Positions 5,581 through 39,910 of a stretch of DNA of 64,000 nt are shown one piece after another. A model generated the notes under the pieces. That model was not told the origin of the DNA. It ran no database searches and saw only the letters and a list, made by a program, of their open reading frames with translations. The position numbers and the translations under genes are program-made. Position 1 is the stretch's first letter, and every line of letters begins with the position of its first letter. This stretch comes from an uncultured Spirochaetia bacterium (GTDB taxonomy: Bacteria; Desulfobacterota_D; UBA1144; Nemesobacterales; UBA2774). The stretch covers positions 10,739 through 74,738 of the forward strand of contig CAZUDM010000004.1 in assembly GCA_964618635.1 (NCBI GenBank), given 5' to 3'.

Positions 5581-6468
5581 TCAGCCCCCGAACCTTACCA
5601 CCATATCTACAAGGAAGTCGACGTTGGCGAAGTTGGTGATTTCGCTGCTGCCGAATGGTATCTGGACGCCCGCGCCGAAGCTGAACATCTGGCCGCCTAC
5701 CCTGACGCCGGGGGTGACGTAGGCCCCCGTGACGTTGCTGTCGAACGTCGTCGAAGACGCGAGGAGAAGCTCCAGAAGAAAAGAAGTCGTGAACGGTACG
5801 CCGAAGTCGGGCGTGATGCTGCCCGTCGCCCCGTATTTAAGGATCAGCTCCGTGCTGTCGCCGCCTGTATTGAAGGGACCGCTGTCGGCCTTCTTCGCGT
5901 TGGTCATTATGTCGAAATCGAGGTTGGCCTGAAATGCGAACATGCTCCCGCTCACGGCGAAGACGGCATAGGGGACGAAGGTGTAGGCGTCGTCGGTGAA
6001 ATAGGCGAAGTCGCGGAAGTAGGAGCGCGCGCCGAGCGCCCCGGGGTCGTTGCCTGTCGTCGGGAGTATGGCCTCGAAGCCGACAGTGAAGACGCTGCTC
6101 CCGGAGGCGTGGAGGGCGTACTTGGTTCCGACGCCTATGTTGCCGAAGTCGTAATCGCCGTCGCCGAAGACGCCGCTGGTTACGCCCGCGAAGGGGAATT
6201 TACCGTAAAAACCCCAGTAATTCTCTGATAAGGCAATGTCGAGCCTGAGCTGGTTCATTATGAGCGCGCCGCCGCCGTCAACGGATGCAATTTCGAGATT
6301 GCCCTTCAGGCCCGTCGAGCTGTATGGGTGCTCCAGGAAGAAGGAATATGGGATGTTTCGGACTGTCGCCGCCCCGACCTCTTTTGCCGGAAGCAGGGCC
6401 ACCGAAAAGATTGCGGTCATTATCGAAAGGGCTAGGAGTACCCCGCGGGGGCGGTTTTTCTGTCTCAT
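5581..6468 (-). CDS. Putative outer-membrane beta-barrel protein (MetA/phenol-degradation-like transporter family)
   Basis: Signal peptide (LLALSIMTAIFSVALLPA) and alternating Gly/aromatic-rich beta-strand pattern. It resembles the second OMP at 19286-20329. Confidence 0.5.
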   Translation of the reverse strand: MRQKNRPRGVLLALSIMTAIFSVALLPAKEVGAATVRNIPYSFFLEHPYSSTGLKGNLEIASVDGGGALIMNQLRLDIALSENYWGFYGKFPFAGVTSGVFGDGDYDFGNIGVGTKYALHASGSSVFTVGFEAILPTTGNDPGALGARSYFRDFAYFTDDAYTFVPYAVFAVSGSMFAFQANLDFDIMTNAKKADSGPFNTGGDSTELILKYGATGSITPDFGVPFTTSFLLELLLASSTTFDSNVTGAYVTPGVRVGGQMFSFGAGVQIPFGSSEITNFANVDFLVDMVVRFGG

Positions 6469-10135: not shown

Positions 10136-10960
10136 ATGAGCAGAGAGCGCGAATTAAAAGAGATAGCCGGGGATTTGAGGCGGTACTATGAATTCCAGAA
10201 AGATATGGGGGTGAAGAGGGTATTCAGGGAGAGAGGAGAGCGTGCCGCCGAAGAGAATACAGAAAGGAAGTATCCCGGATGGGAGGAAACCATGACGCCG
10301 AAAAAAACAACCGCCAGAGAAGACAGGGGAGCCGCACCGAAAGAGGAGGTAATCAACGTCCCGGAGCAGATGGGGATGTTCGACTCGTCCACGAAGATAA
10401 TGCCGCTCGAAGAGATAAAGAAGGAGCTTCTGGAGAAGATGTCTTCGAGGCTCTTCGAGGGAAGCAGGCAGATCGTTTTCGGCGAGGGGAACCCGAAGGC
10501 GAGGCTCGTATTCGTCGGCGAGGCCCCGGGACGGGACGAAGATATTCAGGGGAGGCCATTCGTCGGAAGGGCCGGGCAGCTCTTAAACAAAATAATCGAA
10601 GCCATGGGGCTTAAGAGGGAGGATGTATATATCTCCAACATCGTGAAGTCGAGGCCGCCCGACAACAGGACTCCTACCCCGGAAGAGATGGCGGAGTGGG
10701 AGCCGTTCCTGTTCCAGGAGTTGAGATCGATAAACCCGGAGGTGGTGGTGTGCCTTGGAAGCACGGCGGCACAGTCGATCCTTAAGACGAAGGCTAGCCT
10801 CGGGAGCCTACGCGGAAAATTTCACCGTTACGGAAAGTTCAAAGTCATGGTAACTTATCATCCAGCCGCGCTTCTCCGGAACCCGAACTTCAAGAAGCCC
10901 CTTTGGGAAGACATGCAGCAGGTCATGAAGGAGCTTGGAATTTCCAGACCGGGCGATTAG
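10136..10960 (+). CDS. udg: Uracil-DNA glycosylase, family 4, with an N-terminal ~90-aa extension
   Basis: GEGNPKARLVFVGEAPG...GRPFVGRAG motifs of family-4 UDG. The stop codon lies inside the tRNA acceptor stem. Confidence 0.85.
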   Translation: MSRERELKEIAGDLRRYYEFQKDMGVKRVFRERGERAAEENTERKYPGWEETMTPKKTTAREDRGAAPKEEVINVPEQMGMFDSSTKIMPLEEIKKELLEKMSSRLFEGSRQIVFGEGNPKARLVFVGEAPGRDEDIQGRPFVGRAGQLLNKIIEAMGLKREDVYISNIVKSRPPDNRTPTPEEMAEWEPFLFQELRSINPEVVVCLGSTAAQSILKTKASLGSLRGKFHRYGKFKVMVTYHPAALLRNPNFKKPLWEDMQQVMKELGISRPGD

Positions 10961-11026
10961 CTCAGTGGATAGAGCGCAGGCCTCCGAAGCCTGAGGTCGG
11001 GGGTTCGAATCCCTCATCGCCCGCCA
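10951..11026 (+). tRNA. tRNA-Arg (anticodon CCG)
   Basis: GGGCGAT acceptor 5' pairing with ATCGCCC; D arm GCTCAGTGGATAGAGC; anticodon stem CAGGC/GCCTG with loop CTCCGAA; T arm GGGGGTTCGAATCCCTC; discriminator G and encoded CCA. Confidence 0.9.
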
Positions 11027-11190
11027 TTGGTATTCAGAGATCTTTTTATCATGCCTATAATCATATTTCAGTATCCTTGTTAACTTTATCTAATCGGCAT
11101 ATAATTAATTTACTTGTTCAATGATGCGCAGTTGGGTACAAGCATTATTGTCCGGCATACATAAATAGCGTTAGATACAGGAGGTTCAAA

Positions 11191-11433
11191 ATGAGCGAAT
11201 TAGTTTCGAAGAAGTACAACAAAGTTCATACAACTTCAGCAATAGTTCAGATATTGGACTTGACTAGAACGGGTAGCTCTATAGAGCTTGAGATGTCTTC
11301 CAAAGGAGAAAAGCTGGGAACGCTGGTTATAGGGCGGGGATCATTTAAATGGTATCCAAAGCACTCGAAAAAGAACCATGTTCGGTTGGATTGGACAACT
11401 TTTGCCGAAATCATGAAAGGATACGGCAAATGA
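11191..11433 (+). CDS. Hypothetical 80-aa protein on the AT-rich island segment
   Basis: Strong RBS ACAGGAGG 7 nt upstream of the ATG. Low-GC codon usage matches the island. No recognisable domain. Confidence 0.4.
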   Translation: MSELVSKKYNKVHTTSAIVQILDLTRTGSSIELEMSSKGEKLGTLVIGRGSFKWYPKHSKKNHVRLDWTTFAEIMKGYGK

Positions 11434-11480
11434 ATGTGAAGCTGTAAAATTCACGAGTGGGTTTTAATGAACCAGCATCA

Positions 11481-11522
11481 AAGCCTGAGGTCGTGGATTC
11501 GAACCCCCATCGCCCGCCATGG
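11481..11522 (+). repeat. att-like imperfect direct repeat of the tRNA-Arg 3' half (copy 2)
   Basis: AAGCCTGAGGTCGTGGATTCGAACCCCCATCGCCCGCCATGG, against tRNA 10986-11029 AAGCCTGAGGTCGGGGGTTCGAATCCCTCATCGCCCGCCATTGG. Confidence 0.8.
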
Positions 11523-36511: not shown

Positions 36512-36732
36512 GGAACATGTGCGAACGTCACCTAAAATGAGAGCGAAGCCATTTTTCCATACTTCGGGCGGCTGATTATCGTCGGAAAAATGATGGTTGC
36601 TTTTCGCCGGACGGACCTTATACTTCATCAACTTTAAAGTTTCCGGAGTGCGCCGGAAGCAGAATAAGAAGTCTGTGTTATAGTATTAATTTAGATTGCC
36701 GTGCGGGATTAGGCGGCATGGAGGAAAGGCTT

Positions 36733-36894
36733 ATGAACAAGAGAGGAAAGAAGAAAATAAAAGACCTCGTTGACATGCTCGAAGACCCGGAGAATTCGGG
36801 CTATATAGGCGGAGATTACGAGGACATGATGGAGCTTTTGGAGCAGGAGCTGGCGGAATCCGAGGAAGAGGAAGATCAGGAAGAAGCCGAGTGA
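36733..36894 (+). CDS. Putative 53-aa acidic micro-protein
   Basis: GGAGGAAAGG RBS, then MNKRGKKKIKDLVDMLEDPENSGYIGGDYEDMMELLEQELAESEEEEDQEEAE. It overlaps the mnmG 3' end by 19 nt (convergent). Confidence 0.25.
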   Translation: MNKRGKKKIKDLVDMLEDPENSGYIGGDYEDMMELLEQELAESEEEEDQEEAE

Positions 36895-38789
36895 TCGGCG
36901 CCCCCACTTTCCATATCACCCCGTTTTAAATAAACCATAAGAACAGAGATTGCAGCCGGCGTTATGCCGGAAATTCTGCTCGCCTGGCCGAGTGATCCGG
37001 GGCGTACGCGCGAGAGCTTCTGCACTATTTCTTTCGAGAGGCCGGGGATGTCGTCGTAGGAGAAATCTTCCGGTATGCCGAGGTTTTCCACCTTCCTGAA
37101 CTTTTCGATCTGCTCGATCTGCCTCTTGATGTAGCCCTCGTATTTGATCTCCATTTCGATCTGCGTGAGAACGTCTTCCATAAGCTCCGGAGCGGAATCC
37201 CCGCCGGGGAGGAGGGAGAGCGCGGAGTACGAAATCTCGGGGCGGCGAAGTATTTCTTTTAGAGACTGCGGCTTTTTTATCGTCGACGAGCCGAGCGAAA
37301 GGAGTATTTCGTTCACGCGTGGGTCGGGAGTTATTTTTATGCTTTCGAGCCTCCGGAGCTCCTCTTCGGCTGCCTGCTTTTTAGCCCTTACCTTTTCGTA
37401 ACGCTCTTCGGATAGAAGCCCGATAGCGTAACCCTTTTCGGAAAGTCTCATGTCGGCGTTGTCTTCCCTGAGCAGGAGCCTGTATTCGGCCCTGGACGTG
37501 AACATCCTGTAGGGCTCGTCTACGCCCTTGGTTACGAGGTCGTCGATGAGTATGCCGAGATAGGCCTCCGAGCGGTCGAGCACGAAGGGGGATTCGCCCT
37601 TGACTCGAAGCGCCGCGTTGATGCCCGCCATGAGACCCTGGCTCCCGGCTTCTTCGTATCCCGTAGTGCCGTTTACCTGCCCGGCGAAGTAGAGATTGTC
37701 GACGAGCTTGGTTTCGAGAGTGGGCCTTAACTGTGTCGGGTCGACGTAGTCGTATTCGACCGCATAGCCCGGTCTCATTATCTCGACGTTCGAAAGACCG
37801 TCTATCGTCCTGACCAACTCATATTGCACTTCCAGAGGAAGACTCGTAGATATGCCGTTCGGATAAATTTCGTACGTCGAGAGGCCTTCGGGCTCGAGGA
37901 AGATTTGGTGCCTTTCCTTGTCCCTGAACTTAACGACCTTGTCTTCGATGGAAGGGCAGTAGCGCGGGCCGACGCCTTTTATCTCGCCCGAATAAAGAGG
38001 GGATTTGTGGAGGTTATCGGTTATGACCTTGTGCGTCTTTTCGTTTGTGTATGTGATATAGCAGGGAAGCTGCTCGCGCTCGATGGAGCCAGTCCAGAAG
38101 GAAAACGGCTTCGGGTTTTCGTCACCGGGCTGGGGCTCGAGGATGCTCCAGTCTATGGTTCTGCCGTCGAACCTCGGCGGCGTGCCGGTTTTAAGCCTCC
38201 CCATTTTAAAGCCGAGGCTGCCGAAGGAATCCGATATGCCTATTGCCGCCGCCTCACCCGCCCTGCCGGATGATATCTTAGTCTGCCCGATGTGTATGAG
38301 GCCGTTGGGGAATGTGCCCGGCGTGACCACGACCGCGCCTGAATAGAAATGCTCGCCGAGTGTCGTCTTCACGCCGCATACGGCCCCGCCCTTTACTAAA
38401 AGGCCCTCGGCCATGCGCTGCTTTATGTCGAGGCTCTTCTGCGCTTCGAGGGTGGACTTCATGTAAGACCTGTAGAGCTGCCTGTCGGCCTGTATGCGTG
38501 TCGCCTGTACGGCCGCGCCCTTACGGGTATTGAGCCTTCGGAACTGGATTGCTGAATGGTCGGCCGCCAGGCCCATCTCGCCGCCGAGGGCGTCGATCTC
38601 CTTGACGAGGTGGCCCTTGCCGACTCCGCCCACGGAGGGATTGCATGACATGAGACCGATGGTGTCGATATTAGCCGTGAGGACGAGCGTCTTGCACCCC
38701 ATGCGCGCGCACGCGAGCGCCGCCTCGCAGCCGGCGTGACCGGCCCCGATGACTATGACGTCGTAATTACGCGGATATTCGATGCTCAA
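36876..38789 (-). CDS. mnmG: tRNA uridine-5-carboxymethylaminomethyl synthesis enzyme MnmG (GidA)
   Basis: YDVIVIGAGHAGCEAA FAD motif and full MnmG architecture. The track ORF runs to 39158, but the conserved N-terminus implies a TTG start (LSIEYPRNYDVIV). Confidence 0.9.
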   Translation of the reverse strand: MSIEYPRNYDVIVIGAGHAGCEAALACARMGCKTLVLTANIDTIGLMSCNPSVGGVGKGHLVKEIDALGGEMGLAADHSAIQFRRLNTRKGAAVQATRIQADRQLYRSYMKSTLEAQKSLDIKQRMAEGLLVKGGAVCGVKTTLGEHFYSGAVVVTPGTFPNGLIHIGQTKISSGRAGEAAAIGISDSFGSLGFKMGRLKTGTPPRFDGRTIDWSILEPQPGDENPKPFSFWTGSIEREQLPCYITYTNEKTHKVITDNLHKSPLYSGEIKGVGPRYCPSIEDKVVKFRDKERHQIFLEPEGLSTYEIYPNGISTSLPLEVQYELVRTIDGLSNVEIMRPGYAVEYDYVDPTQLRPTLETKLVDNLYFAGQVNGTTGYEEAGSQGLMAGINAALRVKGESPFVLDRSEAYLGILIDDLVTKGVDEPYRMFTSRAEYRLLLREDNADMRLSEKGYAIGLLSEERYEKVRAKKQAAEEELRRLESIKITPDPRVNEILLSLGSSTIKKPQSLKEILRRPEISYSALSLLPGGDSAPELMEDVLTQIEMEIKYEGYIKRQIEQIEKFRKVENLGIPEDFSYDDIPGLSKEIVQKLSRVRPGSLGQASRISGITPAAISVLMVYLKRGDMESGGADHSASS

Positions 38790-39580
38790 TTCCTGCGCTC
38801 CCAGAAAAAAAAGAACCGGACAAAAGGAAGAAGTGTAAATAGTGAGGGGGCGGGCGTCAATTATGGGGGGGGAGGAAGGGGAAAGAGAAAGACGGGATTG
38901 CCGCGGTCGCGCGGGGCGCTCCCTCGCAATGACAGGGTAGGCAGAGTAACGGGTATGAAGGATTTTGCCTATGCTCGAATTAACAGGAATAAGGCACCCC
39001 TCACCCTGTCCCTCTCTCCTTGGGGGAGAGGGGACTTGTTGGATGGATAGCGGACGCTGTTCGCAGATCCTGAATCGAGCTCCCGGCTTCGCTTCGGACT
39101 CCGCTGAAGCTCCGACCGACAAGAAAGCTTCCGACTTCGCCAAGGCTACGTTGGACAAGATGCCGGGCAGGTAGGATGACTGATTGAAAAAGTGGATTCC
39201 CGATCCGGGCTTCGCCGCGACAGGTAAAAGCGTTCGGGAGTGACAAAAAGGTTAAATCCCCCCGTACCCCCCTTTTTCTAAGGGGGGATGAAAGACAAAA
39301 GCGAAGAATGAAAAGAATGGATTCCCGATACAAGCATTCGGGAATGACAGATAATTAGATATCGCTGGGAATGAGATTAATTCGTCAGACGCGCATAATC
39401 CGATTATGCGATGAGGGTGCTACGTCGTTTGCCAGCGGACGCTGTCCGAAAATCCCCCAATCCGTTAAATACGCCGGTCGCACGATGGCAGCTAACTGCA
39501 CAGCGCCAAACTACGTCGGTTGTCGGCGCACACTGTGCGTGTGTGGTAGAATGCTAGTCCATTCCAAAAGGAGAGCGCGA

Positions 39581-39910
39581 TTGTCGAGAACGAGAGAGAT
39601 ATTCGGGAAAGTGGACAGGAGGCTAAAGGAAAGGGGGGACGAGTATAAGGACGTTGGAGCGCTCTATAAAATCGTTCTCGAAGGCGCAGACGGGGGAACA
39701 TGGCTCATAGATTTCAGGGAGGGATCGATGGGAGTAAGGGAAGAGGGAGGCGAGGCGGACTGCACCATAGAGACCAAGGACGAGCACTTCGTGAACCTCT
39801 TCGACGGCAAGCTCTCCCCGGAGAATGCGCTCCTCACGGGAAAGGTAAAGATTGAAGGCAACATGCTTTTAGCGCTGAGGTTCGGCGAGCTTTTAAAGAA
39901 GAGCAGATAA
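39581..39910 (+). CDS. SCP2 sterol-binding domain protein
   Basis: SCP2 fold motif (LYKIVLEGADGGTWLIDF...LLTGKVKIEGNMLLALRFGELL). TTG start preceded by AAAGGAGAG. The track ORF starts at 39371 with an implausible Cys-rich leader. Confidence 0.7.
   Translation: MSRTREIFGKVDRRLKERGDEYKDVGALYKIVLEGADGGTWLIDFREGSMGVREEGGEADCTIETKDEHFVNLFDGKLSPENALLTGKVKIEGNMLLALRFGELLKKSR

Follow-up and report, generated by a model that had tools for sequence, protein, structure and literature searches.

Intergenic arrays of short palindromic units, with variable segments of tens of bp between the units, are known as Neisseria intergenic mosaic elements (NIMEs) in N. meningitidis and as bacterial interspersed mosaic elements (BIMEs) in enterobacteria. 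The REP/REPIN elements (repetitive extragenic palindromes) are mobilised by the REP-associated tyrosine transposases (RAYT), which are IS200/IS605-like. The NTS of Neisseria, i.e., CGTCATTCCCGCGMAVGCGGGAATCYRG (CGTC-ATTCCCGCG..CGCGGGAAT-C), contains the dRS3 repeat ATTCCC-N8-GGGAAT (PMC11893778). It is a single-stranded DNA (ssDNA) hairpin to which SsnA binds, a GIY-YIG nuclease of 94 aa whose cut lies a few nucleotides upstream. Cleavage depends above all on the three bases that precede the palindrome (5'), and binding above all on the C that directly follows it (3') (PMC11893778). NTS-like motifs, named Ssn-related motifs (SRM), flank ssn genes across phyla (PMC11893778, Nat Commun 2025). 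The subject of the present analysis is the 790-bp region 38790-39580, which separates the divergent genes mnmG (minus strand) and an SCP2-domain gene (plus strand) in a 64-kb stretch of contig CAZUDM010000004.1 (64,000 nucleotides, hereafter the window). Unlike the NTS, this region belongs to an uncultivated lineage related to Dadabacteria. It is probably, for the most part, a recently acquired and lineage-specific mosaic of NTS/dRS3-like mobile hairpin repeats, which parts two core promoters by ~650 bp.

The region is unusually rich in hairpins. Seven perfect hairpin hits (four distinct hairpins with stems of at least 7 bp) are found in 791 bp; dinucleotide shuffles of the region contain 0.63 on average, none of 300 shuffles reaches 7, and no other 791-nt window of the 64 kb has a higher count. 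The mosaic has its core at 38887-39361, where at least 6 units, all in a single orientation, form an array with neighbouring units 50-125 bp apart. Read on the minus strand, the core units follow one grammar, i.e., 5'-GTC(A), a palindrome beginning with AT, then ATC(C)-3'. The unit with the perfect hairpin at 39392-39410 and the KGG unit both terminate in the ATGA flank that the other units have. As DNA, three or four local hairpins are individually significant, namely GEG, R2b and the 39392 hairpin (z about -3 to -3.7), and the stems of U1, R2a and R1 fold no better than shuffles (Table 1 for the units and their names). A loose detector for hairpins of the type «AT-arm...AT-GAC» gave no more hits than in shuffles and is uninformative.

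All the repeats and hairpins that the earlier note had listed are present in the sequence and required only small corrections of coordinates. The R2 direct repeat, TGGATTCCCGAT, is exact at 39193 and 39318, with its partner arm TTCGGGARTGACA at 39233 and 39337; each copy had been described as the 5' arm of a hairpin; the second hairpin (R2b) has a perfect 8-bp stem, and the stem of the first one (R2a) pairs at 7 of 8 positions and its fold is not significant. The G8 homopolymer had been placed correctly, and the CTCTCC hairpin corresponds to CCCTCTCTCC/GGGGAGAGGG at 39010-39032. The C6-T5CTAA-G6 hairpin exists as well, at 39267-39287 and not at 39249-39275; a second C6 run is found at 39258-39263. 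Three features were absent from that list: the NTS-like hairpin 38894-38935 (U1), the perfect 8-bp hairpin 39392-39410 and a 36-nt tandem pair (39091-39160).

The likeness to the NTS is best seen for R2b, whose minus strand, tGTCATTCCCGAatgcttgtaTCGGGAATCCa, shares 10 + 9 nt (GTCATTCCCG and CGGGAATCC) with it. GTC is found 5' of the R2b palindrome and C right after it, i.e., at the positions that are critical for the NTS (PMC11893778). These flanks are perfect in R2b (GTC-ATTCCCGA..TCGGGAAT-C), are accompanied by one stem mismatch in R2a, and surround a different stem in U1 (GTC-ATTGC..GCAAT-C); on the contrary, the KGG unit has neither flank base. As in the case of the NTS, the repeats are oriented, intergenic and clustered. 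The loops differ: 9 nt in R2b and 30 nt in R2a vs. ~3-6 nt in the NTS.

The comparison of the same junction in relatives, collected via SCP2 homologues and via MnmG, indicates how the region was built. One JGI contig (L208, sample 3300028845, 141 kb) has 97.6% identity with the window along 20 kb and thus belongs to the same species; the intergenic region is 791 bp in both. In the other relatives it measures about 110 bp (L216, with an SCP2 protein 66% identical to that of the window), 136-147 bp (L002 and L003, 51% and 44%), about 170 bp (L211, 82%), 291 bp (L210, 94%), about 390 bp (L212 and L213, 86%) and about 560 bp (L215, 83%). Both core promoters, at the ends of the gap, are conserved among relatives, and the middle varies by lineage. 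On the mnmG side, the block 38806-38870 is 91-98% conserved among the closer relatives, and TTGACG-N17-TACAAT/TACACT is found by eye at the equivalent place in L002 and L003. The conserved block on the SCP2 side is 39541-39600; TGGTAAAAT and TGGTAATAT are found, again by eye, at the SCP2 -10 position of L002 and L003.

Between these ends the modules are shared in a patchy manner: (i) the U1 block (38889-38933) is common only to L215 (87%, at the equivalent site) and is absent in L210, L211 and L212, the difference from L210 being a clean indel of 41 nt; (ii) the GEG hairpin is common to the window, L208, L210, L211 and L215, at an equivalent position; (iii) the KGG unit (39254-39293) is common only to the intergenic region of L212, with 92.5% identity; (iv) the R1 core is common only to L210; (v) R2a, R2b and U2 are found in none of the relatives' mnmG-SCP2 intergenic regions. 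Conserved ends and patchily shared modules thus lead to the conclusion that ~650 bp accreted, unit by unit and in a lineage-specific manner, between two promoters which, in the simplest relatives, stand directly back to back. This one locus allows the turnover of single units (gain, loss and reshuffling) to be traced across seven lineages of relatives. An apparent hairpin upstream of mnmG in L043 was discarded, as it actually lies inside a coding sequence.

The same units are found in a phage contig of 29.8 kb (IMGVR_UViG_3300028845_000195) that comes from the same metagenome sample as L208; the loci L180, L237 and L317 together equal its length. This contig encodes a tail tube protein and has a GC content of 46% vs. 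55% for the window. Its similarity to the 64-kb window is confined to 38887-39361, i.e., to the core of the mosaic, with 21 high-scoring segment pairs in one orientation. R2b has copies identical over 36/36 and 34/34 nt in L317; homologues of R2a, with its long loop, are found in L317 (3666 and 7298) and in L237 (2663). The insert of U2 is 89-90% identical to L237 over 36-50 nt, a U1 copy in L237 differs by just 5 loop bases, and the KGG unit is present in 5-6 copies. Altogether the phage contig contains 21 perfect GTCAT..ATC hairpins, all on a single strand, located in many intergenic regions and belonging to at least 5 stem classes. At least 8 units of the R2 type, 9 of the uninterrupted U2 form (GTCATCCTGAAC-N-TTCAGGATCT) and 2 of the canonical short NTS-like form (GTCATTCC(T)GCGCAGGC(A)GGAATCC) are found there. 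The intergenic regions of the phage being filled with the same units, the patch was probably seeded or extended through exchange with mobile DNA of the phage, which may infect, or be integrated in, the organism of the window. The shared units thus link a host chromosome to a co-occurring phage and could be used for host assignment and for questions on Ssn-type nucleases outside Neisseria. Two independent Logan short-read contigs of the window's species (L001 and L209, from ERR2586217 and SRR10823755) both begin at 39323, inside R2b; this fits a branch of the assembly graph at a multi-copy 36-mer in those samples.

The hairpin families are widely dispersed. Among the matches listed, more than 120 viral contigs carry the pattern GGATTCCCG-N(4-34)-CGGGAATGAC, and the same holds for the U1 (TGC) class (GGATTGCCNCG..CTCGCAATGAC) and for the GEG class; the 161 listed matches of the first pattern include 126 of the 25-nt NTS-like form and 17 of the 30-nt R2b form. 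The earlier note had proposed a multi-operator regulatory region. For R2 and the hairpins this reading is not supported, since R2 is a dispersed family (more than 120 viral contigs among the matches listed, and at least 8 copies in the phage contig); the alternative that the note had itself named, dispersed REP-like elements, holds for R2. With a more stringent pattern of the R2b type, 17 JGI metagenome contigs were obtained, in which the hairpin mostly forms a head-to-head doublet with a partner ~20 nt away. In six of these metagenome loci, the R2-type hairpin is part of a unit of ~150 bp resembling a miniature inverted-repeat transposable element (MITE) and bounded by the terminal inverted repeats CCTATCCGAAAACC / GGTTTTCGGATAGG. 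In these six loci (L219, L226, L230, L231, L232 and L235) the doublet consists of the R2-type hairpin and an inverted GTCATTCCCGC..GCGGGAATCC hairpin. A second type of doublet, made of GTCATTCCGG..CCGGAATCC and an R2-type hairpin, is found in L224, L227, L228 and L234.

The R2 class is also associated with genes of the Ssn type. These genes were searched for by tblastn, followed by Pfam confirmation and then by a hidden Markov model (HMM). Screens with GIY-YIG regular expressions gave nothing and are uninformative, the second one having missed ssn genes that tblastn later found in those same loci. GIY-YIG genes (Pfam PF01541) lie 9-40 nt from an R2-class hairpin in three of the four hairpin-selected loci that carry such a gene. 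Starting from the protein, 27 Ssn-like genes were found, and perfect GTCA[TC]-palindrome hairpins lie less than 1.5 kb away from 10 of them; their usual places are about -60 and +290, in inverted orientation, the second one being just past the gene. Such hairpins number ~27 in ~83 kb near Ssn-like genes vs. 10 in 937 kb of control loci. The hairpin-ssn-hairpin architecture is thus reproduced for the R2 class in viral contigs. Beside the Ssn-like genes of the viral contigs L472-L488, the palindromes differ within one GTCA..TCC frame (ATTCCCGCG, ATCCCCGCG, ACCCCGGAC/ACCCCGGGC and ATGCTCGCC); different spellings beside different Ssn-like genes fit a co-variation of enzyme and hairpin.

Compared with the other known mosaics, the array of the window resembles NIMEs and BIMEs in that intergenic short palindromic units are gained and lost between close relatives. 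It differs from them on several points: (i) the strict dRS3 form ATTCCC-N8-GGGAAT is not found, R2b being ATTCCC-N13-GGGAAT and the arms of R2a being farther apart; (ii) several unrelated stem classes are mixed, all units having one orientation; (iii) the array lies between divergent promoters and not downstream of genes. The resemblance to NIMEs is therefore one of organisation only. With REP/REPIN elements the units have in common that they are short extragenic palindromes with asymmetric flanks, and the R2 type forms head-to-head doublets in other metagenome loci. However, contrary to REPIN and MITE elements, the window contains no inverted doublets and no terminal inverted repeats flank the block; the enzyme tied to the R2 hairpin class, by the literature and by the viral loci described above, is a GIY-YIG nuclease and not a RAYT, with no specific search for Y1 transposases having been made. 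No new kind of element is revealed here; arrays of NTS/SRM-like hairpins are extended to an uncultivated lineage related to Dadabacteria.

Table 1. Features of the mnmG-SCP2 intergenic region and its borders (coordinates of the window; z, DNA fold relative to shuffles; RBS, ribosome-binding site).
Feature	Coordinates	Strand	Description
mnmG coding sequence	36876-38789	-	TTG start 38789-38787, GGAG RBS upstream; left border; from open reading frame and translation
mnmG core promoter	38832-38860	-	TTGACG (38860-38855), 17 nt, TACACT (38837-38832); promoter scan
Polypurine tract with G8 (38865-38872)	38861-38893	.	directly upstream of mnmG -35
U1, NTS-like, «TGC» class	38894-38935	-	cTGTC-ATTGCGAGGG...CCGCGGCAAT-CCC; stem ATTGC/GCAAT; weak DNA fold (z -0.6)
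GEG hairpin unit	38997-39035	.	CCCCTCACCCTGTCCCTCTCTCC-TTG-GGGGAGAGGGGAC; stem 39010-39019 / 39023-39032; z -3.7
R1a	39049-39070	+	first R1 palindromic unit, GCGGAC-GCT-GTTCGC
U2, «ATCCTGAA» class	39065-39180	-	AGATCCTGAATCGAG...GGCAGGTAGGATGAC, also written AGATCCTGAAT...AGGATGAC; loop holds ~95-nt insert including the 36-nt tandem pair 39091-39124 / 39127-39160
R2a, NTS-like	39193-39245	-	tGTC-ACTCCCGA-(30 nt)-TCGGGAAT-CCa; stem 7/8, loop insert; DNA fold not significantly stable (z -0.2)
KGG unit	39250-39297	-	GGTTAAATCCCCCC-GTA-CCCCCCTTTTTCTAAGGGGGGATGAAAGACA; hairpin 39267-39287
R2b, best-preserved NTS-like hairpin	39318-39350	-	cTGTC-ATTCCCGA-atgcttgta-TCGGGAAT-CCa; perfect 8-bp stem, 9-nt loop; DNA fold -6.9 kcal/mol, z -3.7
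Candidate remnant of one more unit, 3' arm with flank (GCTGGGAATGAGA)	39364-39376	-	weak, from the sequence alone
Perfect 8-bp hairpin	39391-39415 (hairpin 39392-39410)	-	CGCATAAT-ccg-ATTATGCG, then ATGA flank; z -3.1
R1b = D1 copy 2	39420-39455	+	CTACGTCGTTTGCCA-GCGGAC-GCT-GTCCG-AAAATCC
D1 copy 3	39511-39539	+	CTACGTCGGTTGTCG-GCGCAC-ACT-GTGCG; dyad 39527-39539 just upstream of SCP2 -10
SCP2 promoter, extended -10 TGgTAGAAT (TGGTAGAAT)	39544-39552	+	identical in five closer relatives
SCP2-domain gene with RBS AAGGAGAG	39568-39910	+	RBS 39568-39575, TTG 39581 to 39910; right border

The most likely way in which such an array could arise may be described as follows. The units would act on DNA rather than on RNA, the palindromes extruding and folding when the minus strand becomes single-stranded, i.e., during replication or in incoming phage or transforming DNA. 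The folded units would then be recognised by a matching enzyme specific for hairpins, whose gene would reside in a phage or in another part of the genome; by analogy with the NTS, an Ssn-type nuclease is the best candidate, and the array may thus depend on such an enzyme. Nicking, repair and recombination at the hairpins could add, delete, duplicate and shuffle units. The array would be largely neutral, and would build up without disruption of either gene because this DNA, presumably not transcribed, is upstream of both promoters.

Several observations weigh against a mosaic of NTS-like mobile repeats, or limit its reach. The published SRM pattern, HGTCWYN(0-2)YYVSBRHN(0-5)WNVSBRGN(0-2)RNCYNB, matches no unit in 38790-39580, though it detects the canonical NTS; its sole 2 matches in the window are at 5689 and 26259. 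R2 is missed because its loop is too long for the pattern. Judged by their sequence, the units are thus NTS-like variants and not matches to the published SRM pattern. By tblastn and a small HMM, no GIY-YIG (ssn) gene was found in the 64-kb window, nor in the relatives' loci or the phage contig, and the TGC and GEG classes, as well as the ATCCTGAA and C6/G6 classes, showed no link with Ssn, contrary to the NTS. No further strict unit is present in the rest of the window or in ~125 kb from relatives, and dispersal in the host genome is thus not shown; the host is perhaps a mere recipient of units. Several units may be dead copies, since U1 and R2a fold no better than shuffles. The GEG hairpin persists in four lineages, some of its changes being two-sided; this hints, on few sequences of low complexity, at a constraint on structure, which a purely neutral model would not predict. 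Lastly, the R1/D1 family described below is outside the reach of the mosaic model. A search of the literature with the literal repeat sequences returned only irrelevant results.

Another explanation is that the block is the scar of a single integration or recombination event, phage intergenic DNA (~39065-39361) having entered once at an R1 site, so as to be flanked by R1a and R1b in the manner of attL/attR, with no autonomous activity of the units in the host. R1a and R1b (22 bp, 19/22 identical) do enclose precisely those modules that the gaps of relatives lack, except KGG, which is also in L212, and all the bracketed modules are multi-copy in the phage contig. However, no contiguous segment of the phage matches the block, which corresponds to pieces of 33-126 nt from many phage loci with 70-100% identity, and R1 itself is absent from the phage contig. 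L210, with a single R1 core and no block, resembles an «empty site», and the strict units (21 in 29.8 kb of phage) are otherwise absent from ~190 kb of host-lineage DNA examined; yet the R1 bracket does not include U1 and GEG, which are older, since they are common to L215 (U1 and GEG) and to L211 and L210 (GEG), and the gene lists contain no integrase nearby. A single entry of this kind is conceivable, though rather doubtful.

The R1/D1 family deserves separate consideration. R1, i.e., AGCGGACGCTGTYCGMARATCC, is found at 39049-39070 and at 39434-39455; the pair of repeats noted earlier is real, the second copy having been placed too far upstream (~39425). At up to 3 mismatches only these two matches are found in 64 kb vs. 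0.01 expected, the pattern being derived from these same two copies; a binomial estimate for an identity of 19/22 within 800 bp is about 0.003. D1 copy 3 is more diverged (79% identical to 39420-39448 over 29 nt), and its G-to-C and C-to-G changes relative to copy 2 preserve the dyad. R1/D1 is a separate, local triplication of a palindromic element beside the SCP2 promoter. It is not a dispersed family: its 5 viral matches are unrelated and all inside coding sequence, and the phage contig contains no R1. In L212 (3600-4060, also in L213 and L214), two tandem copies of a unit close to the SCP2 promoter, with a GAGGATGATAAAGGCAATTAC..CTACGTCRAATTCCTGC dyad, lie ~110 bp from each other; they arose independently of the triplication in the window.

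The R1/D1 dyads (CGGAC-N3-GTCCG at 39436, CGCAC-N3-GTGCG at 39527 and a weaker one at 39051) might be the sites of a transcription factor that controls the SCP2 promoter, perhaps with looping of the DNA. The unit is present three times, its third copy just upstream of the extended -10, and the dyad survives the base changes from copy 2 to copy 3. L210 has an identical core CGGACGCTGTCCG directly before the SCP2 -10, and analogous dyads are found at the equivalent promoter-proximal place in L210 (GCGCACgtgGTGCGC) and in L212 (GCACGCgtgGCGTGC). However, the spelling of the dyad varies by lineage (GCGCAC, GCACGC, CGCACA) and only its symmetry is kept, which is unusual for the operators of one factor; L211, L215 and L216 share the SCP2 promoter without such a dyad. 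The dyads CGGAC-N3-GTCCG and CGCAC-N3-GTGCG have no other site in the 64-kb window, no obvious regulator gene is found beside the locus in the gene lists, the viral matches to the R1 pattern are coincidences in coding sequence, and these sites account for at most ~100 of the 790 bp. With its symmetry kept and not its sequence, R1/D1 resembles a further palindromic repeat more closely than an operator. Control of the SCP2 promoter by these dyads is therefore unlikely; an operator role is possible for the R1/D1 part, in which one copy overlaps the spacer of the SCP2 promoter.

A bolder interpretation, equally unlikely, goes beyond the mosaic itself and considers the array as the chromosomal footprint of a hairpin «code» common to the phage and to its Dadabacteria-related host. 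The units could then be marks for an Ssn-type ssDNA nuclease in a conflict between phage and host, or recombination handles by which patches of phage DNA come into the chromosome and go out of it. If so, one enzyme system would also handle several stem classes (CCCG, TGC, ATCCTGAA and C6/G6).

The remaining proposal, i.e., that the region contains one or several small RNA genes or encodes cis-regulatory RNAs, the hairpins being RNA structures, can draw on several stable hairpins, on a weak promoter-like site at 39371-39399 (plus strand) and on the R1a stem, kept through a G-T pair that would correspond to G-U solely on the plus strand. This proposal is nonetheless very improbable, as (i) an Rfam scan of the region gave no match at the gathering threshold nor at E<=10 (chance-level best scores of 12-15 bits vs. 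cut-offs of 44-64), (ii) as RNA, neither strand of the 660-nt core folds better than shuffles (z -1.5 and -0.4), (iii) no convincing promoter/terminator pair within the block came out of the promoter and terminator scan, no terminator following any hairpin, (iv) the block, lying between two divergent core promoters that are conserved, is thus upstream of both, (v) it is absent or different in close relatives, including one with a 94% identical SCP2, and (vi) the units are dispersed repeats, present in phage too. The small RNA gene(s) suggested in the earlier note are thus not retained. Its statement that no protein gene fits stands: the open reading frames (ORFs) of the region have no Pfam match (only SCP2 itself matches), and the longest one, of 110 aa on the minus strand, has no homologue among 5.8 billion proteins. 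A long, hairpin-rich intergenic region with the appearance of a small RNA locus or a complex operator consists here mainly of mobile repeat DNA, on the preferred reading as a mosaic; such regions and their spurious ORFs should not be annotated as functional genes.

Concerning the borders, the start of the SCP2 gene had been proposed at the TTG 39581, which agrees with the RBS that precedes it and with its N-terminus, which lines up with the ATG starts of relatives. The product has 109 aa (Pfam SCP2, E 9e-21). In a set of species-representative genomes, the closest MnmG proteins are 73-77% identical and belong to metagenome-assembled genomes of Candidatus Dadabacteria / Thermodesulfobacteriota; no exact match to the MnmG of the window is on record, and the orthologue in L208 matches Pfam GIDA. 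The run of G upstream of the mnmG -35 is G8 in the window, G7 in L208 (9231-10060) and G6 in L210 (1988-2310); this variation of length between close strains is a slippage-type polymorphism.

Two minor observations concern other parts of the window. A small ORF of 58 aa, very acidic, is found at 36718-36894 (plus strand), convergent with mnmG and with an overlap of 19 nt at the 3' end of that gene. This ORF is conserved (59-79% identity by tblastn over 26-29 residues in L002-L004), appears in the gene calls of L208, L211, L212 and L216 with the same length of 58 aa, and has no Pfam family on record. Farther away, ~450 bp of AT-rich DNA, in which there is a small ORF (11191-11433), separate a tRNA-Arg(CCG) at 10951-11026 from a direct repeat of the 3' part of this tRNA at 11482-11519; the whole (10951-11519) looks like the attL/attR of the remnant of a small integrated element.

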